A stretch of DNA of 32,000 nucleotides from Methanothermus fervidus DSM 2088 (GCA_000166095.1 CP002278.1:1211343-1243342); one strand, 5' to 3'; shown: positions 3,432-16,516, counted from the first letter of the stretch. Numbers and translations: made by a program. Notes: generated from the letters alone by a model not told the origin.

Positions 3432-3632
3432 ATGGGTAACCTTAGGTATTTAGTTATTTTAATTCTTTTTATAGCGGTTATTGCCTTTATTTGTGGTTCA
3501 GTAGTTGGAATTGTTATCGGAATTTCTGAAAACTTCAAAAATTATGGAACCATGAAAATAAACCAATACAATATAACATTTCCATTTCATCTAACTAAAG
3601 TTATGGAAAATTCTTTCTGCTTAGAAAAATAG
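3432..3632 (+). CDS. Small hypothetical membrane protein
   Basis: 66-aa ORF with one N-terminal TM helix (LVILILFIAVIAFICGSVVGIVIGI). GGGGAT lies about 8 nt upstream of the ATG. It fills an otherwise empty gap. Confidence 0.35.
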   Translation: MGNLRYLVILILFIAVIAFICGSVVGIVIGISENFKNYGTMKINQYNITFPFHLTKVMENSFCLEK

Positions 3633-3643
3633 GAAGGGATAAA

Positions 3644-4822
3644 TTGCAAAGGGTAAATGGTGGAGTATGCACAGTCAAAAACATTAAAGCATCAGGATGT
3701 AAAAATGGAAAACATGGTGTTGGAATTTTATTAACAAAAAATTGTGAGGCTGCAGGGGTTTTTACAAAAAATAAAATAAAAGCAGCCCCTGTTAGATTAA
3801 CAAAAAAAGTATTAAGAGATGGGAAACTTTCTGCAATAGTTGCCAATAGTGGCAATGCAAATTGTTTTACAGGTAAAAAAGGCATGGAAGATGCTATAAA
3901 AATGCAGGAAATAACTGCTGAGAAACTAAATTTAGATCCAAATGAGGTTGCAGTTGCATCAACAGGTATAATTGGTTTAAGAATGCCAATGGAAAAAATA
4001 ATTCCTCTTATAAATAAAGCATCTTTAAAATTAAATAATTCCCCAAAAGCTTCAAGAAAATTTGCAAAAGCAATAATGACAACAGATACATTTCCAAAAG
4101 AGTTCGCTGTTGAATTCAGGCTTAAAAATGGTGAAAAATGTAGAATTGGTGGAGTAGCTAAAGGTGCTGGTATGATATCTCCAAATATGGCTACTATGTT
4201 ATCCTTTATAACCACAGATATAGATGCTAGCGCAGATGAATTATATGAGTCTCTAAAGATTGCTGTAGATCGTAGTTTTAATATGGTGGTTGTTGATGGC
4301 GATCAAAGCACTAATGACATGGTATTAATTTCTTCAACTAGAGAATCTGGAGAAATTGATGAAAAGTTTCAAACAGCTTTAAATTTTCTTTGTGAAGAGT
4401 TAGCTAAGATGATAGCAAAGGATGGAGAAGGTGCAACAAAATTCATAGAAGTTATAGTTAAAAATGCAAAATCGTCTGAAGATGCAAAGAAAATTGCCAA
4501 ATCCATTGTGTCTTCTCCACTTGTTAAGACAGCTGTTTTTGGATCTGATCCAAATGTAGGTAGAATAATAGCAGCCATAGGATCAACAAATTGCGATGTT
4601 AAGGAAGAAAAAATAAATATAAGATTAAAATCTGTTACAGATGTTAACATTGTTAAAAATGGTGAAATAATAAAAAGTAAAATACCCTATGCAAGAAAAG
4701 TAATGAATGAAAAAGAAATTAAAATTATTGTGGATTTAAAGTTTGGAAATTCCTCAGCAAAGGCATATGGTTGTGATTTAACATATGATTATGTTAAAAT
4801 AAATTCAGAATACAGTACGTGA
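3644..4822 (+). CDS. argJ: Bifunctional ornithine acetyltransferase / N-acetylglutamate synthase ArgJ
   Basis: ArgJ family pattern throughout. The autoprocessing site PNMA|TMLSFITTD has its nucleophile Thr codon at 4193-4195. TTG start is preceded by AGGAAGGGA. Confidence 0.92.
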
Positions 4823-6681: not shown

Positions 6682-6791
6682 ATTCTCAACCAAATTTTTT
6701 ATTCATAACTAAATTTAAGGTCAGTTGTGAAAATAAGTATATAGTAACTTATGTGAAGTGGTAATGTAATGGATGGAAGTAGGTGAGTCAC

Positions 6792-7121
6792 ATGAAAGTT
6801 CATTTACAAATTTTTGTTGAGATAGAAAATTTGGGACGTGTAATAAATATACTTTCTAAGGAAGGAGTTACAGGATTTTATTTAATTGAATATAGGGGAG
6901 TATCTCCACAGGAATGGGAAGGTTTTACAATTCAAGAAGATCCAAAATCTGTTGTATCATTTATTAAAGATGTTGCACAAAATGCTATACTGGTATCTTG
7001 TGTAGTTGATAAAGAAAAGGCATATGATATTAGAAAAGAAATAAACAGGAAATTAAGCGATGTAAAATATACAATAATGGAAATTCCAATAAAAAGCATT
7101 GTTGTAAATTTTGCTGATTAG
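6792..7121 (+). CDS. P-II-like (GlnB-fold) small protein, function unknown
   Basis: MKVHLQIFVEIENLGRVINILSKEGVTGFYLIEYRG parallels the PII N-terminus (beta-alpha-beta, then the T-loop position). GGTGA lies 5 nt upstream of ATG 6792. The ORF track starts at GTG 6783. Confidence 0.5.
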   Translation: MKVHLQIFVEIENLGRVINILSKEGVTGFYLIEYRGVSPQEWEGFTIQEDPKSVVSFIKDVAQNAILVSCVVDKEKAYDIRKEINRKLSDVKYTIMEIPIKSIVVNFAD

Positions 7122-7130
7122 GTGATAAGT

Positions 7131-7982
7131 ATGAAAGCTGTGATACCTGCGGCGGGATTAGGTACTAGACTTTTACCAATTACTAAAGCGCAGCCAAAGG
7201 AAATGTTACCTGTTTTTGATAAACCGGCTATTCAATATGTTGTAGAGGAGGCTGTGGCAGCAGGAATTGATGATATACTTATAATAACTGGTAAAGGTAA
7301 AAGATCAATAGAAGATCATTTTGATAGATCTTTTGAATTAGAATATTTTTTAAAAAAGAATAATAAAAATGAGATGCTTAATGAAATTGAAGAAATTTCA
7401 GAATTAGCTGATATTTATTATGTAAGACAAAGAGAACAAAAAGGATTAGGGGATGCTATATATTGTGCGCGTAAGCATGTTGATGGAGAAACATTTGCTG
7501 TATTGTTGGGAGATACAATAACATATTCTAAGACACCATGCATTAAAAAATTAATGGAGATGTATAAGATATACAAATCCAGTATTGTAGCTGTTGAAGA
7601 GGTTCCAAGAAAAAAAGTAAGTAGGTATGGAATAATAAAGGGAAAAGAATTGAAAAAAAATATTTATTTGGTTGAAGACATGGTTGAAAAACCTAAAATT
7701 GAGGAAGCACCGTCAAACCTAGCTATAATTGGTAGATATATCCTTGAACCAGAAATATTTGATTGTATAAAAGAAACAGGTCCAGGAGTTGGTGGTGAAA
7801 TACAACTAACAGATGCAATGAGATTGCTAGATAGAGTATATGCTTACAAGTTTTCTGGGAAAACATATGATATTGGAAATAAAATAGATTGGCTAAAAAC
7901 TTCTATAGAATTTGCACTTAGAGAAAAAGATATTAAAGAAAAACTAAAACCTTGGCTTTCAAAAATTATTAAACAAAACTAA
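7131..7982 (+). CDS. galU: UTP--glucose-1-phosphate uridylyltransferase
   Basis: KAVIPAAGLGTRLLPITKAQPKEMLPV, GLGDAI and VEKP motifs. GGTGA (7121-7125) lies 5 nt before ATG 7131. The ORF track starts at GTG 7122. Confidence 0.92.
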   Translation: MKAVIPAAGLGTRLLPITKAQPKEMLPVFDKPAIQYVVEEAVAAGIDDILIITGKGKRSIEDHFDRSFELEYFLKKNNKNEMLNEIEEISELADIYYVRQREQKGLGDAIYCARKHVDGETFAVLLGDTITYSKTPCIKKLMEMYKIYKSSIVAVEEVPRKKVSRYGIIKGKELKKNIYLVEDMVEKPKIEEAPSNLAIIGRYILEPEIFDCIKETGPGVGGEIQLTDAMRLLDRVYAYKFSGKTYDIGNKIDWLKTSIEFALREKDIKEKLKPWLSKIIKQN

Positions 7983-7988
7983 TAAAAA

Positions 7989-8062
7989 TCCCGGCTGCCG
8001 GATTTGAACCGGCGACCCGCGGATCTACAGTCCGCCGCTCTACCAGACTGAGCTAAGCCGGG
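7989..8062 (-). tRNA. tRNA-Tyr (anticodon GTA)
   Basis: Hand-folded 74-nt cloverleaf: acceptor CCCGGCT/AGCCGGG, D arm GCTC-AGTCTGGTA-GAGC, anticodon arm GCGGA-CTGTAGA-TCCGC, T arm GCCGG-TTCAAAT-CCGGC, discriminator A. The C1:G72 pair is typical of archaeal tRNA-Tyr. No encoded CCA and no intron. Confidence 0.93.
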
Positions 8063-8099
8063 ATATCTTTACTCACAAGATATTATAAAAAAGTTCTTA

Positions 8100-8116: not shown

Positions 8117-9307
8117 TCATGTAATCAATGCATAAATCAATGACAATATTATTGCTATAACACCTAATTCCCATCTTCCAATTTGCCATCCAATAAAAGT
8201 CATTAAAAAGACAAAAATAAAAATCAAAATTCCTTCTCCCTTCCTATTCAATGCAAAATTTATTAAAGTTCTAGTGAAATCTGAAGGAATAAAATAAGCA
8301 TAAGTACCATTTGCAAGATTAAAAACTACTGTAGAGCTTGGATGCCAAAACTTTACATCATCAGATAAATATGCATTTTCACCAGCTTCTTTCCTAGTTT
8401 TACCTACTCCAGCCCTTATTTTAACATCGTTTACTTGACTTTCCCAAATTGCTTCTAATATTGCTTGTAATGCTAAATCTTTTGTTGGCATACTTGCAAC
8501 CAAATCATCGCCACCTTTACGATAACCTTCTATTTTTCCTTCTCGTTCTTCGATTCTTTTCTTTATTTTTTCCATCACTAAACTTAAAAAGTCTCTACCA
8601 TATTTCTCAATAAATTTTGTGGAATTTATTACATCAAGAAAAAGATAATTGCCATGAGTAGAATATGTTTCACCAATTTTTGAAATTTTTGATGGAAAGA
8701 GAAGTGCAAATTCCCCACCAAATTTTGTAAAAGCCACTCCTGGTATTTCACCGACTTCATTAGTTAACTTTATAGCTCTTTCTACAGCTGCTGCAGCGGT
8801 CATTCCTACGGCAGCCCGCACATTTAAATTTTTCTCACCACCCAATGCTATAAGCTTTATTGCTATTTTTATTGCTTCATTTTTTGATATTAATCTTGCT
8901 AATATTTCATTAGGACCTTTTTCTACAATTTCTCCTCCTTCATTTTTGATTGTATCAATAAATTCATTCACATCAGCTTTTTCTGGAAGTTCAACATATA
9001 GATATCTATCACTGCCAACAATTATATCACTTAAAAGTGCACGTTCATTTATATCTTTCTCAGGTTTTTTTAATTCAACAAATCTACCATTTCGAGGCAA
9101 AGCAAAATTTAGTTCTTCAACTAAACTTTCAAATATGCTATTAGAATCAATTTTTGCCTTTTTAAGTTCTATCAACATAGTTTTTGTATCGTTCATCATT
9201 TTAACATATTTTTCTTCGTCTTCTGTAGTTGGACGATAATCAGTCCCAATACTAATAATCCTTTTTCCAATAAAAAAACTTAAAATAAAGCGTAGGATCC
9301 TACCCAT
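8117..9307 (-). CDS. Membrane-anchored protein with GGDEF/Cas10-palm-like GGDD nucleotide-cyclase signature
   Basis: YLFLDVINSTKFIEKYG(x27)RKGGDDLVASMP...VKIRAGVGKT matches the GGDEF palm layout in both order and spacing (metal Asp codon 8633-8635; GGDD codons 8504-8515). Additional GG[DE] motifs: NEGGEIV and KFGGEFALLF (8708-8719). The C-terminus has two TM helices (ILIFIFVFLMTFIGW, LGVIAIILSLIYALI). ATG directly follows the upstream TAG and is preceded by GGAGGA. Confidence 0.6.
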   Translation of the reverse strand: MGRILRFILSFFIGKRIISIGTDYRPTTEDEEKYVKMMNDTKTMLIELKKAKIDSNSIFESLVEELNFALPRNGRFVELKKPEKDINERALLSDIIVGSDRYLYVELPEKADVNEFIDTIKNEGGEIVEKGPNEILARLISKNEAIKIAIKLIALGGEKNLNVRAAVGMTAAAAVERAIKLTNEVGEIPGVAFTKFGGEFALLFPSKISKIGETYSTHGNYLFLDVINSTKFIEKYGRDFLSLVMEKIKKRIEEREGKIEGYRKGGDDLVASMPTKDLALQAILEAIWESQVNDVKIRAGVGKTRKEAGENAYLSDDVKFWHPSSTVVFNLANGTYAYFIPSDFTRTLINFALNRKGEGILIFIFVFLMTFIGWQIGRWELGVIAIILSLIYALIT

Positions 9308-10327
9308 CTACTTTTGTCCTCCTTTTTCCAATGTAACCTCAAATTCACCAGGATTTTCAAGTAATACACTAGGTCTCACAGCAACTATTGGAAATCTCCA
9401 ACTACCAATTCTTGCGGCAATTGTACTTGCTATATTCCTGGAATTCCTTTTTACCAAAGCATAATCATGATTATTAACTGTTATATTGACATTGTATGGT
9501 GATTCTTCCATTACATCTTCTGAAGGCAACACATTTAATTCAAAATGGTTTTTCCGCATGAAAATATCATTTCTAACAGCTACAAGTGGACTATATTCTA
9601 ATTCTAAATTATCTCTGACAGTTACAGCTATGTTGCCAGCATATTTAACAACTTTTTTATAATCTTGTGGATTAACAAGAACAAATATTATATAGTTTCC
9701 TTCTTCAATATTTTCAACCATCTCTAGAACATTTTTTAAGACAGGAATTTTCATGAACACTTCTTCAACTTTTGACTCTAATCCTTCCTCATAAACCTTA
9801 ATTCTACTTATAGCTTCTTTAGCTATTGCTATGCCACTAAGCTTTTTCCCATGTCTTACATTATAGTAATCAAAACCTTTGTCTTTAAATTTGTTTAAAG
9901 CATCTAAAGTGATTTCTTTTATTATGTCTTTGACCTTCCTTACTTTTGGAATCTTTCCAATTACTATTTTATTATTTTCAAATGTGTAGGGAACTCTTCT
10001 ACTATCAATATTTTTAAATTCATCTCTAAACTCTCTAAAATTGTCATTTGACAATATTTTTGCATCTTCTTCTTCTGCCAACTTTAAAATATAATGATCT
10101 GCATTTGTACCTGCAGGTACTTCCTTAATTATCCCCTTTTTTATGTATTCCTTATATTTCTCTTCATCATCAATCTTATGTTTCAAAGAAGCGTCAGCAA
10201 CGACTATCGGTTTAAAACCAAGTTTTTTTACAGCCTTTATAGCTTCGATAATTCTTTTCATTATCGCCTTATTCTGATGGTGGGCAATATTTGATGCATC
10301 TATAATCATTTTCAATGGATCACCCAT
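9308..10327 (-). CDS. NYN-domain (Zc3h12a/N4BP1-like, PIN-fold) ribonuclease fused to an uncharacterised ~200-aa C-terminal domain
   Basis: MIIDASNIAHH...KPIVVADASLKHK...GIIKEVPAGTNADHYILKLAEEEDAKILSNDNFREF follows the RNase_Zc3h12a motif order, with acidic residues at the expected positions. An alternative start is ATG 10309. Confidence 0.75.
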   Translation of the reverse strand: MGDPLKMIIDASNIAHHQNKAIMKRIIEAIKAVKKLGFKPIVVADASLKHKIDDEEKYKEYIKKGIIKEVPAGTNADHYILKLAEEEDAKILSNDNFREFRDEFKNIDSRRVPYTFENNKIVIGKIPKVRKVKDIIKEITLDALNKFKDKGFDYYNVRHGKKLSGIAIAKEAISRIKVYEEGLESKVEEVFMKIPVLKNVLEMVENIEEGNYIIFVLVNPQDYKKVVKYAGNIAVTVRDNLELEYSPLVAVRNDIFMRKNHFELNVLPSEDVMEESPYNVNITVNNHDYALVKRNSRNIASTIAARIGSWRFPIVAVRPSVLLENPGEFEVTLEKGGQK

Positions 10328-11063
10328 TTTTTCTTTTATATTTACCTAATATTTTCATTTTTCCTTCTACTTCACATAATTTTACTTTTATTTCTTTCTC
10401 ATTCACCAAATACACATTATAACTATTTGGATTTTTTGCTCTAAGTGATGGAGATGAAACTGTACCTGCAGTTGCAAAAACACAACCTTCTAAATTCCAT
10501 GAATATGGTACATGTCTATGTCCACAAACAACAAGATCCACATCGTATTTAACTAAAGATTCTAGAATATCACCAGCGTCAAGAAGTACATTTCTTTCTC
10601 GTCCTGTTTTTGGAACGGGGATGATATGATGATGCAAGGCTACAATTTTGAATTTATTTTTTGCTTTTTTCAATTCTTTTTCAAGCCATTTTTGCTGTTC
10701 TCTTCCTATCTTTCCACAATCTAAATCAGGTTCACTACTGTCAAGTCCAATAACAACAAACTTTTTATTCTTATTTTTAAGAACACCTGATCTTGGACCA
10801 ATAACTTCTTCAAATACTTCATAACCTACGTGTCTAGCATCATGATTTCCTGGTACAGTTATAGTAGGTATAATCTCTGAAATTTCATCTAAATATTTTT
10901 TTGCTTCTATAAATTCCTGATAATAACCATTGTTTGTTATATCTCCACTTACAATAACTACATCAGGGCGGATGTTTTTAACCTGGTTCAGAGCTTTTTT
11001 TAATAATTTTTCCTTAAATTTGAATTCACCCACATGAAAATCTGAAAGGTGGGCAATTATCAA
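10320..11063 (-). CDS. Calcineurin-like metallophosphoesterase, Icc/CpdA-like (possible cyclic-nucleotide phosphodiesterase)
   Basis: Motif series LSDFHVG, SGDITNNG, PGNHD, ALHHH, CGHRH. The TTG start immediately follows the NAC stop codon, with GAGG upstream. Confidence 0.8.
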   Translation of the reverse strand: MIIAHLSDFHVGEFKFKEKLLKKALNQVKNIRPDVVIVSGDITNNGYYQEFIEAKKYLDEISEIIPTITVPGNHDARHVGYEVFEEVIGPRSGVLKNKNKKFVVIGLDSSEPDLDCGKIGREQQKWLEKELKKAKNKFKIVALHHHIIPVPKTGRERNVLLDAGDILESLVKYDVDLVVCGHRHVPYSWNLEGCVFATAGTVSSPSLRAKNPNSYNVYLVNEKEIKVKLCEVEGKMKILGKYKRKNG

Positions 11064-11405
11064 TTAACTCAGCCTCATAATTGCTTCTGCGATGTCACCA
11101 TTACTTTCTTTTAAGGCTTTTTCAGCCTCATCCCTACTAACTCCTGTTTGTTCCATAACAAGCTTAATATCTTCTTCAGGTATTTTTTCCTCAACTTTTC
11201 TTTCTTCAACTTTACCAGTCACTTGATATGTCTTTTGACCCATTAGATCCATCAAAGTTACACTGGGATTCTTTATAACAAGCTCTTTGTCATTCATTTT
11301 AATAATAACTTCATTAACACCTTTTAATTCTTCCATTTTCATTCCCATTTGCTTCATAACTTTTTGCATACGTCTCAACTGTCTTGGATCCATACCAGGT
11401 ATCAT
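11064..11405 (-). CDS. nac: Nascent polypeptide-associated complex protein (archaeal NAC, with C-terminal UBA domain)
   Basis: MDPRQLRRMQKVMKQMGM N-terminus, NAC beta-barrel segment, and C-terminal UBA-like VSRDEAEKALKESNGDIAEAIMRL. ATGA overlap with the tgtA stop. Confidence 0.92.
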   Translation of the reverse strand: MIPGMDPRQLRRMQKVMKQMGMKMEELKGVNEVIIKMNDKELVIKNPSVTLMDLMGQKTYQVTGKVEERKVEEKIPEEDIKLVMEQTGVSRDEAEKALKESNGDIAEAIMRLS

Positions 11406-13366
11406 TCACTCCACTCCTTTCTATTTTTTACAGCCACTCCTCTCTCAAACTCCATCATTTCATAGCTAGATAATACAGCTTTACCAAATGCGATTAATTC
11501 ATCATCCTTATTAACAACTAAAACTTCGTCATTTGCTCTTATCTTTTTATCACAATCTATAATAAATTTGGCAAATACATTTCTACCAGCTTTTACGAAT
11601 GGTTCTGCTTCCTCATTAACAACGACTCTATTTAATGGATATTCTCTATTTTCATGTAATTTTTTTGCTCCATCCCAAGTTAGTATTATAAACCCATCTG
11701 GTGGTCGTATAGTAGCTAAAAGAACATCGTCTTCATAAATATACCTTATTCTCCCAGTTTTTCTACTTCTCAACACTCTAATATTTCCATTAAATAAGGC
11801 TTCTCCACTTCCTTCACCAAATTGATAATCAGCCATTAATTTTACTATTTCTAGATCTTCAATTTTTGTTTCTATTTCTATATCATCTCTGTATTTATTT
11901 GATAAACCAAGATCAAATCTTTCATTTACAAGTTCATTGACAAGAACTTCTTCATATTCTTCAAACAAATCCTCAATTTTTTTAATTAAAAATTCTTTCA
12001 TCTCTAAATCATAATTTTTTGGAACTTCGCATTGAGCAAGAGGATATAATTCATCTACGCCTAGAGGAATTATACAAAATGGAACATCCACAACAAAAAA
12101 TTGGGATTCTTCTATAGGTTTACTAGAATTTCCTATACGATAGAATCCTTTAATTTTCTTAGGAATATTTCTATTGTATGGTTTACCATAAGAAGGTAAC
12201 AATATTGCCCTACTCCTTTTTGGTAATTGTTTAATTTTTTTAAAATGACGATATATTTCCACACGTCTTAAACTTTCAGGGCCTAAGTAAAAGAATGCTG
12301 AAGGTTTTGTTACAGGATCATATTTTTCTATAAATTTTTTATATTTAAGAAGTTCTCTATAAGCATCTAAAAGTGTTGGATGAGATCTACATCTTTTTTC
12401 AACAAGTTCCATCAATGATCCATCATATATTGCCTGCCTAACTCTTCTCATCTCACTAAAACTTACATAAAGATTATGTTGAGATATCAATTTATATCTT
12501 TCATCTTTTTCCATTCTCCTCAATTCCTCAGGCGTATATTCTAGACATATTGGACATGTGCATGGCATTTCTTGTAAATCTTGGAGTTTATAAGTTCCAT
12601 GTGGACTTAAAAATCTATCATCTTGTGCATATAACATATAAGCGGCTGAATCAAATAAATCACAGCCCATAGCTACCATCAATGCAAATAACATTGGATG
12701 CCCAGCACCCATAAGATGTATAGGACGAGAACGTGGTAAATGTTGAACTGAAGACATGACTATATTTACTATTGTTCTGTAATCATAAGATTCAAGTAGT
12801 GGAACAACAGCGCCTATTGGATGCACATCAAAAGAATATTTACTTAATTCCTTTGCACAACGGGCTCTAAGGTCAGGATATGTTGATCCTTGTACTACAG
12901 CATTAAGTAGCATATCTTTCCTATAATCTAAAGATTCTATAGCTCTTTTAATTGTTATGTCTAATTCTTCTTCTGCTCTTTTTCTACTAACATATGGTGG
13001 TGTGGGTATATCTAATGAAGTTCCAATATCTGAACCTATTTTTTCTTGGAACTCAATTATTTCTTTATTACTAACATCAATATCTCCATATTTAGAAAGT
13101 TGGAAAGAACCTGAATCAGTCATTACAACTCCATCAAAATCTATTAATTTATGTACACCTTTTTTAATTGCTTCTTCTCTAAGTTCTTCATCTCTGTAGA
13201 TTATATATGCGTTAGTAATGACTATCTCTTTGTTAAATTTTTTTATGTCAAATTCTTGTTTTTTTGGATGAATAACTGGCATTAAGGTAGGGGTTTGAAC
13301 TTTTTTATTTTTCACTGTAAATATGCCAATTCTTCCAAGTCCATCTTTTCTCTTTATTTCAAACAT
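11402..13366 (-). CDS. tgtA: Archaeosine tRNA-guanine(15) transglycosylase with C-terminal PUA region
   Basis: TGT TIM-barrel motifs (VMTDSGSFQ, HLMGAGHP), Zn site CTCPIC, and a long C-terminal extension ending in a PUA-like segment. 654 aa is typical of ArcTGT. GGTGA lies 7 nt upstream of the ATG. Confidence 0.93.
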   Translation of the reverse strand: MFEIKRKDGLGRIGIFTVKNKKVQTPTLMPVIHPKKQEFDIKKFNKEIVITNAYIIYRDEELREEAIKKGVHKLIDFDGVVMTDSGSFQLSKYGDIDVSNKEIIEFQEKIGSDIGTSLDIPTPPYVSRKRAEEELDITIKRAIESLDYRKDMLLNAVVQGSTYPDLRARCAKELSKYSFDVHPIGAVVPLLESYDYRTIVNIVMSSVQHLPRSRPIHLMGAGHPMLFALMVAMGCDLFDSAAYMLYAQDDRFLSPHGTYKLQDLQEMPCTCPICLEYTPEELRRMEKDERYKLISQHNLYVSFSEMRRVRQAIYDGSLMELVEKRCRSHPTLLDAYRELLKYKKFIEKYDPVTKPSAFFYLGPESLRRVEIYRHFKKIKQLPKRSRAILLPSYGKPYNRNIPKKIKGFYRIGNSSKPIEESQFFVVDVPFCIIPLGVDELYPLAQCEVPKNYDLEMKEFLIKKIEDLFEEYEEVLVNELVNERFDLGLSNKYRDDIEIETKIEDLEIVKLMADYQFGEGSGEALFNGNIRVLRSRKTGRIRYIYEDDVLLATIRPPDGFIILTWDGAKKLHENREYPLNRVVVNEEAEPFVKAGRNVFAKFIIDCDKKIRANDEVLVVNKDDELIAFGKAVLSSYEMMEFERGVAVKNRKEWSE

Positions 13367-13377
13367 ATAAATGTCAC

Positions 13378-14511
13378 CTATTGAATGGTTTCTTTAATTT
13401 TTTTCAAGCGCTTACGCATCATCAATATTCTTTCCCTAGAATTCTTTGGACGTGGTTCATTACAACCACAGATACATTTATCAAACTGTGGACATACAAT
13501 ATACTTGGCCTCATAACTATTTATCTCAATCCCAAATTTCTGTGCATTTTTAATAGCCCTTGTATTTGCCTCAGCTTTCCCTAAATACAATGGAGTTCTA
13601 GCTGAGGAGGATAAATATTCCTTATGTCTTGCCTTCTTTCTTTCAATTTTTCTTCTCTTTAAAATTTTTTCTGCAGGATCATTTAAATTTGGATCTCTAA
13701 ATGGTATTCCCACATCACTTAAGGCTATCATTCTTTCATCATCAACATTAAGTTGTTTTTTTATGAGGGAAGGATTTGGGGATGCTATAGTCCCTCCACG
13801 TTTTCTACCAAATATAGGACCTTCCCCTATATAAAATCCCACTTCAATCATCCCAGATCTTACTGGAGCAGCAGATGTATAAGTTGTTAAAATACTATTT
13901 TTATTCATAACCCTAATAACTTCATTGAAAAATTCAACAGTGTATAATTCTGGAGATCTTAAAGGACTATAAGCATCTAAAAATACCACATCATAATAAT
14001 CAGATTTTAAATTTTTTATAACATCTCTTGCATCATTACAGAATACATTAATTTTTATGTTTTTTCTCTTGTCTTTTGTTTTGTTGTCAATTTTTTTCAA
14101 TACTCCCTCTTCATAAAGTTTCTTTTTATATACAGTTTTAATAAGCTTGTGAGAATCTATGGGACTTGGTATTAACGTTGCTAACAATAATACTTCTTTT
14201 GATATTTCAATCATGTCTATTTTTAAATTATTTTTCTTTTTATGAATTAATGCAGCAGAATTATAACCCAATCCTGAACATATGTCCAAAACTTTGAGTT
14301 TTTCTTTTTTTAATACTTCAATAGGTTTAACAAATTTTTCAAATGATTCTGTAATTGCACCATGGATTGTATGCATCGTTTCATTAAAATTAGATTTAAC
14401 TGTATATGAACCATCTTTAGTCTTAATTAAATATTTCATTAATTTACCTTTGACGTTGTAACCTTCTAGATACTTCTTCAGTAATTTGGAGACTCTACTG
14501 TCTAATTTCAT
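13378..14511 (-). CDS. MnmC-like (DUF752/COG4121) SAM-dependent methyltransferase with Cys-rich C-terminal extension
   Basis: DGSYTVKS..NETMHTIHGAITESFEKFV, LDICSGLGYNS, VVFLDAYSPLRSPELYTVEFF...TTYTSAAPVRSGMIEVGF parallel the MnmC methyltransferase domain. The C-terminus contains CPQFDKCICGC. Confidence 0.7.
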   Translation of the reverse strand: MKLDSRVSKLLKKYLEGYNVKGKLMKYLIKTKDGSYTVKSNFNETMHTIHGAITESFEKFVKPIEVLKKEKLKVLDICSGLGYNSAALIHKKKNNLKIDMIEISKEVLLLATLIPSPIDSHKLIKTVYKKKLYEEGVLKKIDNKTKDKRKNIKINVFCNDARDVIKNLKSDYYDVVFLDAYSPLRSPELYTVEFFNEVIRVMNKNSILTTYTSAAPVRSGMIEVGFYIGEGPIFGRKRGGTIASPNPSLIKKQLNVDDERMIALSDVGIPFRDPNLNDPAEKILKRRKIERKKARHKEYLSSSARTPLYLGKAEANTRAIKNAQKFGIEINSYEAKYIVCPQFDKCICGCNEPRPKNSRERILMMRKRLKKIKETIQ

Positions 14512-15760: not shown

Positions 15761-16516
15761 TCAATTAATGAATTTTACATATTTAAGAAGATCAATTGCA
15801 TTTTTAACCTCAGATTCTAAATTTAAAGATAGATATGCTTTTTTACCCAATGAAAAACTTGAGGATAATATCATTTGTTTTTTGCCAATTAATTCAACCC
15901 CATTGACTGGTGTATGACCTACAACCATTGCATTACATCCAACTTTCTCTAGAAATCTATCTATATCAGAAAGTGAGTAATCACCATATCTATTCCAAAT
16001 TAATTCATATAAGATGGGATCATCATAATCTTTAACTTTCATAATATCTTCAATACTTTCTATATATCTAGAAGGACCTGCATGGGAAATAAATACTTTG
16101 TTAGAGGTCCTAACAGCTAAATGAAATTTCTTAAAAAATGTTTTAAACTCATCTAATATTTCTTTCCATCCATCTCCAAATTTACTTTTCAATAATCTTT
16201 CAAACATTATTGTGAGATTTATACCACCTTTGTAGATGGGAATTCCTGTAATCACAGACCATTCATGATTACCAAGTAGAAGATATATATTTTTTTCGCT
16301 CTTAAGTAAGTCTCGAACTTTGTATATAATTTCGACAGATCCATCTTCCTTTAAATCCATTGCATGGATTAGATCACCTGTAAATACAAAATATTCGTGC
16401 TCACCACTTTCCCAAATTTTAATATATTTATTAAAATCTTTTAAATTTCCATGAATATCAGTAACTACTAAAAGCTTACCATTATTTGATAATTCAATTA
16501 GAGGATCTTTCATCAA
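15761..16516 (-). CDS. PPP-family/ApaH-like metallophosphoesterase (Ser/Thr phosphatase-like)
   Basis: VVTDIHGN, FTGDLIHA, LLGNHE, ISHAGP and VVGHTP motifs in canonical order. Confidence 0.8.
   Translation of the reverse strand: MMKDPLIELSNNGKLLVVTDIHGNLKDFNKYIKIWESGEHEYFVFTGDLIHAMDLKEDGSVEIIYKVRDLLKSEKNIYLLLGNHEWSVITGIPIYKGGINLTIMFERLLKSKFGDGWKEILDEFKTFFKKFHLAVRTSNKVFISHAGPSRYIESIEDIMKVKDYDDPILYELIWNRYGDYSLSDIDRFLEKVGCNAMVVGHTPVNGVELIGKKQMILSSSFSLGKKAYLSLNLESEVKNAIDLLKYVKFIN

Follow-up and report, generated by a model that had tools for sequence, protein, structure and literature searches.

The subject of this analysis is a string of three genes on the minus strand of a 32,000-nucleotide stretch of the Methanothermus fervidus DSM 2088 genome (GCA_000166095.1, CP002278.1:1211343-1243342; hereafter "the window"), at positions 8117-11063. 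They encode a calcineurin-like metallophosphoesterase (MPE), a protein with an N-terminal NYN endoribonuclease domain, and a membrane-anchored protein termed P3. The module at this locus is genuine, conserved and uncharacterised; it combines a new minimal tandem palm of the class III cyclase type, provided by P3, with a new partner domain, X, which forms the C-terminal part of the NYN protein. An earlier note, made from the sequence alone, had interpreted the three genes as generator, effector and eraser of a nucleotide second messenger. Its observation is confirmed and its interpretation is partly supported. The trio is not cohesive, because in Methanopyrus X and P3 occur with neither an NYN domain nor an MPE next to them, and because inserted genes split the MPE from the NYN gene in Methanobrevibacter; in the strong sense, the locus is no three-part system of generator, effector and eraser.

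Fold and nearest relatives of P3

The AlphaFold2 (AF2) model of P3, computed with 29 homologues in the alignment, had a predicted local distance difference test (pLDDT) value of 84.9 and comprises, in this order, a short N-terminal helix, a (beta-alpha)3 domain, a probably degenerate and an intact palm, and a C-terminal hairpin. The core of the palm fold (beta-alpha-alpha-beta-beta-alpha-beta) was present according to AF2 and Foldseek. Among the best 50 Foldseek matches against the PDB, nearly all were class III adenylyl cyclases (AC), plus GTP cyclohydrolase III; the cyclases included OaPAC and, with probability 1.0, the AC9 C1-C2 core, soluble AC, Ma1120, Rv1900c and CyaB. The TM-score (target) was 0.49-0.55 to Ma1120 and Rv1900c and about 0.5 for single-domain enzymes. 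A palm-only profile, which spanned residues 208-348 and included the Methanopyrus relative, was searched against 177,635 PDB sequences and retrieved the cyclase domain of Rv1900c (E=5.4e-5) and Ma1120 (E=2e-3), with no other family under E=1. In an NCBIfam scan of palm-only sequences, the LipJ cyclase model was matched by 4/15 members and the mCpol model by 1/15. The palm/nucleotidyl-cyclase fold, which the earlier note had assigned to the product of 8117-9307 and put forward for checking, is thus upheld by AF2/Foldseek and by the palm profile.

In the palm-profile alignment, D225 (codon GAT, 8635-8633) is matched with the Asp of the F-T-D-I-V-G-S-T segment, D267 with that of the G-D hairpin, and R298 with the Arg in R-I-G-I-H. 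These three residues match the metal-binding Asp pair and the conserved Arg of class III cyclases, and R/K263 aligns with the base-specifying Lys position. The residues of the intact palm (D225, S229-T230, R/K263, G265-G266-D267-D268 and R298) are invariant, save for the R/K alternation at 263. Conservation of D225 and of the GGDD hairpin (residues 265-268, 8515-8504), on which the earlier proposal depended, extends to all 29 homologues and to the Methanopyrus relative P0128. By sequence and model, class III adenylyl cyclases are the nearest relatives of the P3 palm, ahead of GGDEF and Cas10 proteins, and the palm is likely to be catalytically competent.

The earlier note had described a GGDEF/Cas10-type palm. 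A cyclase-type palm with conserved Asp residues was found, whereas the assignment to GGDEF or Cas10 did not hold: the nearest relatives are class III cyclases, and the mCpol model (NF033576) scored 13.5 bits at full length (E=0.087) and 15.5 bits with the palm only (E=0.02), under its cut-off of 40. No GGDEF protein was found among the PDB sequence matches of the palm up to E=10, and the motif reads GGDD[LF].

The presence of GTP cyclohydrolase III (2qv6, 259-277 columns aligned) among the Foldseek matches bears on a reading in which P3 would be a hydrolase with a metabolic role, like this palm-fold enzyme of archaea, which opens GTP at its purine ring. The P3 family is likewise archaeal, and one palm sequence weakly matches the GTP cyclohydrolase IIa/III model, although far from the family cut-off (11.8 bits vs 306). 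The TM-score (target) is 0.30-0.33, compared with about 0.5 for cyclases, and a biosynthetic enzyme would not usually have a membrane anchor and a partner domain of its own. We consider a hydrolase of this kind very unlikely.

An internal duplication in P3 was detected by hhalign (residues 96-210 vs 212-346; probability 96.5%, E=9e-10, 109 columns), which explains why Foldseek aligned the whole chain to the AC9 C1-C2 tandem and to soluble AC. In the N-terminal copy, E106 replaces D225 and E134 replaces D268, and D267 and the S-T loop are without counterpart. GGEF at 197-200 was considered as the counterpart of GGDD and was ruled out by hhalign, which set it in another register. P3 is accordingly modelled as an internal pseudo-dimer of class III cyclase-like palms, of which the N-terminal one is probably regulatory, by analogy with the C1/C2 arrangement of mammalian cyclases.

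The hairpin helices comprise residues 356-376 and 380-395 in the AF2 model, and their hydrophobic character is conserved. The loop between them is very short, which argues for an anchor and not for an external sensor, and the substrate side of P3 is presumably cytoplasmic. A 10-residue insertion in some Methanobacterium homologues (P0048; loci L011, L015 and L019-L021) is the sole length variation of this loop.

The (beta-alpha)3 domain is highly conserved (G21, T22, E31, Y34, N39 ... D100, R101). It had no match in Pfam or the PDB and is unrelated to the palm domains by hhalign. A CARF assignment was considered, as the PADLOC CARF3 model matched with E=0.011 at full length and 9e-4 with the domain alone, in 2/14 members only; the strand followed by I-G-T resembles the first CARF motif. 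The assignment found no support in the PDB or Pfam and is regarded as a lead, not a finding. If the match were real, the cyclase-like P3 would bear its own nucleotide-sensing domain.

Compared with known class III cyclases (AC C1/C2, soluble AC, Rv1900c/LipJ and Ma1120), P3 shares the palm fold, both metal-binding Asp residues, an alignable phosphate loop after beta-1 (F-x-D-x-x-x-S-T) and R-x-G-x-G strand, the presence of two palms per chain, one of them degenerate, and membrane anchoring. It differs in that its palms span only about 110-125 residues, with the dimerisation arm and the alpha-4 Asn/Arg region unrecognisable; its hairpin reads GGDD instead of x-G-D-x, and Pfam Guanylate_cyc is unmatched. 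Moreover, its anchor is a C-terminal two-helix hairpin and not a bundle of six transmembrane segments, and it adds an N-terminal alpha/beta domain and the obligatory partner domain X.

The NYN protein and domain X

The NYN domain scored 83 bits against PF11977 (gathering cut-off 23; E=2.4e-23; residues 7-130). Foldseek matched it to ZC3H12B/C, MCPIP1 and KHNYN with TM-scores (target) of 0.6-0.7 and 26-31% identity, and the nuclease of protein-only RNase P was also among the matches. In the family alignment, D10, N13, D77 and D95 are invariant, S93-N94-D95 is conserved and E99 is conserved in at least 90% of the sequences; we take these acidic ligands and the Asn to correspond to D141, D226, D244, D248 and Asn144 of MCPIP1. 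On this basis the domain is intact and is predicted to be an endoribonuclease. The earlier description of the gene product as a Zc3h12a-type NYN RNase fused to about 200 residues that defied assignment holds in both parts, with PF11977 above its gathering score and domain X matching nothing. The protein resembles Regnase-1/MCPIP1 (Zc3h12a), KHNYN and N4BP1 in its NYN fold, Pfam match and conserved acidic metal ligands. It differs in having no CCCH zinc finger or KH domain and in carrying the lineage-specific domain X instead, which occurs elsewhere, in Methanopyrus, without a nuclease.

Domain X spans about 200 residues and is better conserved than the NYN domain in the family alignment. Profile searches returned zero matches in Pfam, NCBIfam and the PDB sequences, a profile search for distant relatives gave the same family only, and hhalign found X unrelated to P3. 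The AF2 model of the NYN protein was good for residues 1-125 only; residues 125-339 had pLDDT values below 50, because the alignment is shallow, and were unusable. In Methanopyrus, X is a stand-alone protein of 238 residues without the NYN domain, which hhalign aligned to residues 132-332 (99.7%, E=4e-25). The co-occurrence of X with P3 across two archaeal orders fits a role as partner or sensor.

Distribution and gene order

The P3 family (about 400 residues) was found in Methanobacteriales and in one Methanopyrus relative only, and the X family was confined to the same taxa. A profile search of 1.84 billion representative proteins yielded one full-length P3 cluster, one distant full-length relative (P0128, 452 residues) and fragments. 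All named close homologues are from Methanobacteriales; P0128 is from a Methanopyrus genome, the assembly of which is named Methanopyrus sp. KOL6 (PMC11915815). There, the stand-alone X gene lies directly upstream of the P3 homologue and its stop is 1 nt before it.

Across 80 genome loci, the order tgtA-NAC-MPE-NYN-P3, in which tgtA encodes an archaeosine-type tRNA-guanine transglycosylase (TGT) and NAC a nascent polypeptide-associated complex protein, was kept wherever the contig was long enough. Tight spacing is general across these loci and not peculiar to the window (Table 1). The tgtA-NAC junction is equally tight, and a unit of three genes therefore cannot be derived from close spacing alone. 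X and P3 were adjacent in 75/75 measurable loci, with a gap never above 194 bp; they are strictly co-inherited and translationally coupled.

Table 1. Spacing of neighbouring genes across the genome loci. Gaps are approximate; negative values are overlaps.
Junction	Median gap	Gap >100 bp	Largest gap
tgtA-NAC	-1 nt	1/54 loci	933 bp
NAC-MPE	3 nt	4/70 loci	263 bp
MPE-NYN	-12 nt	12/71 loci	1441 bp
NYN-P3	6 nt	5/75 loci	194 bp

In Methanobrevibacter sp. DSM 116169 (locus L078), three small open reading frames (ORFs) lie between the MPE and NYN genes at 3487-4685, one of 97 residues on the opposite strand and two of 176 and 88 residues on the same strand. The flanking junctions of this locus are tight, with NAC and MPE 6 nt apart and NYN and P3 overlapping by 8 nt. 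Extra DNA like this insert is also present in L055, L058, L066, L071, L075 and L076.

Since X and P3 are linked in both orders and the MPE-NYN junction breaks, the evolutionarily stable unit is X plus P3. The nuclease is a Methanobacteriales-specific fusion to X, and the MPE is linked by synteny only, within one order. The co-occurrence outside close relatives, on which the earlier note had made its trio depend, therefore applies to the pair X/P3, adjacent in Methanopyrus, and fails for the trio, given the absence of NYN and of an adjacent MPE in Methanopyrus and the insert in Methanobrevibacter.

Two further contigs carry MPE, NYN and P3 at 53-63% identity and are labelled as metagenome-assembled genomes of Bipolaricaulota (L030) and Methanomicrobiales (L031), the latter also with tgtA and NAC; they are probably mis-binned Methanobacteriales contigs.

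The metallophosphoesterase

The MPE matches Pfam Metallophos (5e-23), and its motifs DFHVG, GDITNNG, GNHD, HHH and GHRH make up the complete set (pattern D-x-H, GD, GNH[DE], H, GHxH). In the PDB sequence search, its closest solved relatives were GpdQ (1.6e-11), a glycerophosphodiesterase of broad specificity, and Rv0805 (4e-7), a cyclic-nucleotide phosphodiesterase. Against the NCBIfam equivalogs, only partial matches far under the cut-offs were obtained (CpdA 59.6 bits vs 225; SpdA 51.3 vs 400). The enzyme shares all five motifs with CpdA/Icc, Rv0805, SpdA and GpdQ and differs from the CpdA and SpdA equivalogs in scoring far below both cut-offs. Sequence comparison places it in a phosphodiesterase-rich branch of the GpdQ/Rv0805/CpdA kind. 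Its substrate is not readable from the sequence, because the motif series is common to the whole calcineurin-like superfamily. Hence, of the Icc/CpdA-like phosphodiesterase of the earlier note, the GpdQ/Rv0805/CpdA-type neighbourhood stands, whereas the specific assignment does not follow from motifs common to all calcineurin-like phosphoesterases and from a CpdA model under its cut-off.

It is an even call whether X and P3 alone form the functional unit, with the MPE as an unrelated housekeeping enzyme that was inherited beside NAC and does not act on the P3 product; such a history is compatible with X and P3 being the module. The MPE lies within a few nucleotides of NAC, and breaks in the string are most frequent at the MPE-NYN junction. 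The ORFs inserted in L078, one of them on the opposite strand, fall precisely between MPE and NYN, and X and P3 occur in Methanopyrus without an adjacent MPE. An unrelated enzyme would also accord with the absence of the MPE from the pseudomurein-specific gene groups (PMC11915815), with the CpdA match far under cut-off and with a glycerophosphodiesterase as the best solved relative. Conversely, the MPE gene overlaps the NYN gene in most Methanobacterium and Methanothermobacter loci (median -12 nt), and its nearest named relatives include cyclic-nucleotide phosphodiesterases.

A second calcineurin-like metallophosphoesterase gene (15761-16516, minus strand, 251 residues; Pfam Metallophos 1.1e-17) is found in the window about 5 kb upstream, on the same strand.

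Core-genome position and the question of defence

The genes are single-copy, occur throughout the order and hold the same core-genome position in all loci, among tRNA-modification, translation and biosynthetic or metabolic genes. The tgtA-NAC-MPE-NYN-P3 string is vertically inherited core genome. The caveat of the earlier note, that the genes sit in a housekeeping operon and not in a mobile island, is borne out by this constant position in 80 loci and by the housekeeping neighbours. No significant match to the PADLOC defence models was obtained, and P3 had no relative among 72,556 records of plasmids and 50,697 of phages. The distribution follows phylogeny across two sister orders and is not patchy.

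Antiviral signalling as in type III CRISPR, CBASS, Pycsar or Panoptes systems, where the messenger of an mCpol/Cas10-like GGDD palm controls a nuclease effector, was weighed against these data. P3 resembles mCpol and Cas10 in its minimal palm with an invariant GGDD hairpin and in the nuclease encoded nearby, and Cas10 also in having two palm domains, one of them degenerate. A phosphodiesterase is likewise nearby, one member has the weak mCpol match given above (E=0.087 full length, 0.02 palm only), and the P3 N-terminal domain has a weak CARF-like match. However, the mCpol score lies far under its cut-off (13.5-15.5 bits vs 40), an mCpol structure is not among the top Foldseek matches, and class III cyclases match best in both sequence and fold. 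The locus contains no CARF, SAVED or 2TM-beta effector and no CRISPR context, and lies in the core genome instead of a defence island. The single-copy, order-wide genes at a fixed position between tgtA-NAC and housekeeping genes, the PADLOC, plasmid and phage results and the phylogenetic, non-patchy distribution also speak against it. We regard an antiviral role as extremely improbable.

Prior description of the gene pair

The NYN and P3 genes have been listed together as "cluster D" of the pseudomurein-specific genes in a pangenome study, without functional analysis (PMC11915815). The members are OG0001213 (Zc3h12a NYN) and OG0001214 ("nucleotide cyclase", polytopic), the genes are adjacent, and the phyletic pattern is Methanobacteriales plus Methanopyrus (PMC11915815). 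The cyclase label of OG0001214 rests on one Gene3D/SUPERFAMILY match of the Methanopyrus member, 1-2 transmembrane segments are predicted for the group, and within the NYN group an NYN annotation is lacking for the Methanopyrus member (PMC11915815). The annotations of the Methanopyrus members agree with the present results. Cluster D coincides with the pair described here in its two genes, phyletic pattern and adjacency; the study differs in that it describes neither the tandem palms nor the catalytic residues, does not single out X as the element that is really shared, and does not treat the MPE, which is absent from the pseudomurein-specific groups listed. The earlier note had known of no described system of this composition; the NYN/cyclase pair is in print, although listed without functional analysis. 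A literature search found no functional study of the gene pair, and the M. thermautotrophicus locus tags also gave nothing.

Proposed mechanism and its evaluation

In the mechanism that we infer, the core would be a two-gene module of X and P3, specific to Methanobacteriales and Methanopyrales. P3, anchored by its C-terminal hairpin, would hold its palms on the cytoplasmic side and convert a purine NTP into a (cyclic) nucleotide signal at the membrane. Domain X, always encoded directly upstream, would bind P3 or sense its product. In Methanobacteriales, where X is fused to a Regnase-type NYN domain, the output would be regulated RNA cleavage. The GpdQ/Rv0805-type MPE, encoded two genes upstream of P3, could remove the signal; this is the weakest step, and an eraser role of the MPE is doubtful. 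The reading that P3 is catalytic and X its functional partner, in a lineage-specific housekeeping nucleotide signalling route, is proposed tentatively from the sequences, at somewhat less than an even chance. Its more specific form is rather improbable: that P3 is a minimal membrane-anchored tandem-palm cyclase and the missing source of cyclic nucleoside monophosphates, such as the cyclic AMP (cAMP) of M. thermoautotrophicum, with X as a new receptor or subunit that gates the RNase.

Several points weigh against housekeeping signalling by X and P3 with the neighbouring enzymes. With regard to the palm, neither full P3 nor the 15 palm-only sequences matched any Pfam model, cyclase and GGDEF models included (E up to 10). 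The palm is minimal; beyond beta-4 it does not align with those of class III cyclases, which leaves the transition-state Asn/Arg pair and the other specificity residue unassignable. With regard to X, ligand sensing is a guess, and RNA binding or a merely structural subunit is equally possible. With regard to the gene string, tgtA and NAC are as tightly coupled as the trio, so synteny within one order says little about a common function. In 12/71 loci, more than 100 bp, and up to 1.4 kb with inserted genes, separate the MPE from the NYN gene, and the Methanopyrus module has no NYN nuclease, with no metallophosphoesterase within its 17-kb locus.

An RNA-metabolism complex that uses no diffusible messenger was also considered. 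Here, the P3 palms would be a nucleotidyl transferase or polymerase acting on RNA ends, or mere holders of nucleotides, X would be an RNA-binding or adaptor domain, and the NYN domain would be a membrane-located nuclease that processes tRNA, rRNA or mRNA. The palms of polymerases have the same fold as those of cyclases, the nuclease of protein-only RNase P, one of the Foldseek matches, is itself an NYN domain, and the string is rich in tRNA and translation genes (Methyltransf_30, archaeosine TGT, NAC and a downstream tRNA-Tyr). An RNA ligase gene two genes downstream of P3 in Methanopyrus points in the same direction. Yet P3 is closest to cyclases in both sequence and fold, and the residues that align serve cyclase catalysis; membrane anchoring would be left unexplained, and the tRNA context is not kept in Methanopyrus. 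Such a complex is distinctly unlikely.

The ligase belongs to a same-strand string in the Methanopyrus locus (L081, 7283-11732), which consists of X, the P3 homologue, ThiC, which overlaps the P3 homologue by 4 nt, and the RNA ligase (PF09414). This neighbour may point to an RNA-related role or may be incidental.

Gene string and neighbouring features

The features of the locus are listed in Table 2. All junctions were checked in the sequence. The NAC stop TAA directly adjoins the TTG start of the MPE gene (gagTAATTGataatt), the MPE stop and the NYN start lie in an 8-nt overlap (ATGGGTGA), and the NYN stop TAG directly adjoins the ATG of P3, with GGAGGA 9 nt upstream. Together with the ORF coordinates, they bear out the earlier description of three minus-strand genes without intergenic space, and every motif that had been quoted for the three proteins was found in the sequence.

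Table 2. Features of the P3 locus, in window coordinates. Residue numbers refer to the respective protein.
Feature	Position	Strand	Basis and remarks
tgtA, archaeosine-type tRNA-guanine transglycosylase (TGT + C2 + PUA)	11402..13366	-	Pfam; position conserved; outside the proposed module
NAC (nascent polypeptide-associated complex)	11064..11405	-	Pfam NAC + UBA; beside the MPE gene in all loci; outside the proposed module
MPE, calcineurin-like metallophosphoesterase, 247 aa, TTG start	10320..11063	-	ORF list, Pfam Metallophos
NYN protein, 339 aa	9308..10327	-	ORF list, PF11977
Zc3h12a/Regnase-type NYN endoribonuclease domain (predicted), residues 5-130	9938..10315	-	PF11977, Foldseek, conserved columns
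Domain X, residues 132-335	9323..9934	-	Conservation; Methanopyrus stand-alone homologue
P3, 396 aa, membrane-anchored, tandem cyclase-like palms	8117..9307 (stop codon included)	-	ORF list, AF2
P3 N-terminal (beta-alpha)3 domain, residues 14-99	9011..9268	-	AF2 secondary structure, invariant columns
P3 N-terminal, probably degenerate palm, residues 100-209	8681..9010	-	hhalign, Foldseek
P3 C-terminal intact palm, residues 219-345	8273..8653	-	Palm profile, Foldseek, invariant residues
P3 two hydrophobic helices, membrane hairpin, residues 355-396	8120..8245	-	AF2, conserved hydrophobicity
tRNA-Tyr(GTA)	7988..8063	-	ARAGORN, Rfam

The tRNA-Tyr(GTA) gene follows the P3 stop after 53 nt, on the same strand, and has a terminator-like stem and T-run at its end. 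The tRNA gene and the gene string may share a transcript; the string also holds two tRNA-modification genes: besides the TGT gene, a Methyltransf_30 gene is found at 13378-14511. A scan for bacterial sigma-70 promoters returned no more sites than shuffled sequence, the consensus being bacterial and not meaningful for an archaeon. On the plus strand, convergent with P3, genes for a PII-like protein (PF10126, 112 residues) and a GalU-type NTP transferase (286 residues) occupy 6783-7982 with zero intergenic bases between them (7121/7122); this pair was not found beside P3 in the 80 other genome loci compared.

Implications

If the module were inactive, the three-part, defence-like reading of this locus would still be corrected. 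If the novel-cyclase reading were true, an archaeal housekeeping RNA-decay pathway would be under second-messenger control. cAMP is reported for several archaea, including Methanobacterium thermoautotrophicum (Leichtling et al. 1986, as cited in PMC5217372), yet archaeal CYTH proteins with a cyclase annotation are triphosphatases without cyclase activity (PMC8233210). These two findings make the cyclase reading of P3 worth testing, and P3 is a concrete candidate. The strict pairing of X with P3 across two orders likewise makes X a candidate for a new nucleotide receptor or cyclase subunit. Both genes are a signature of methanogens with a pseudomurein wall; this matching distribution may point to a role in the envelope or, equally, may just reflect the shared ancestry of the two orders. 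The dominant gut methanogens of humans and ruminants belong to this group, and a signalling route specific to the pseudomurein lineage would be of practical interest.

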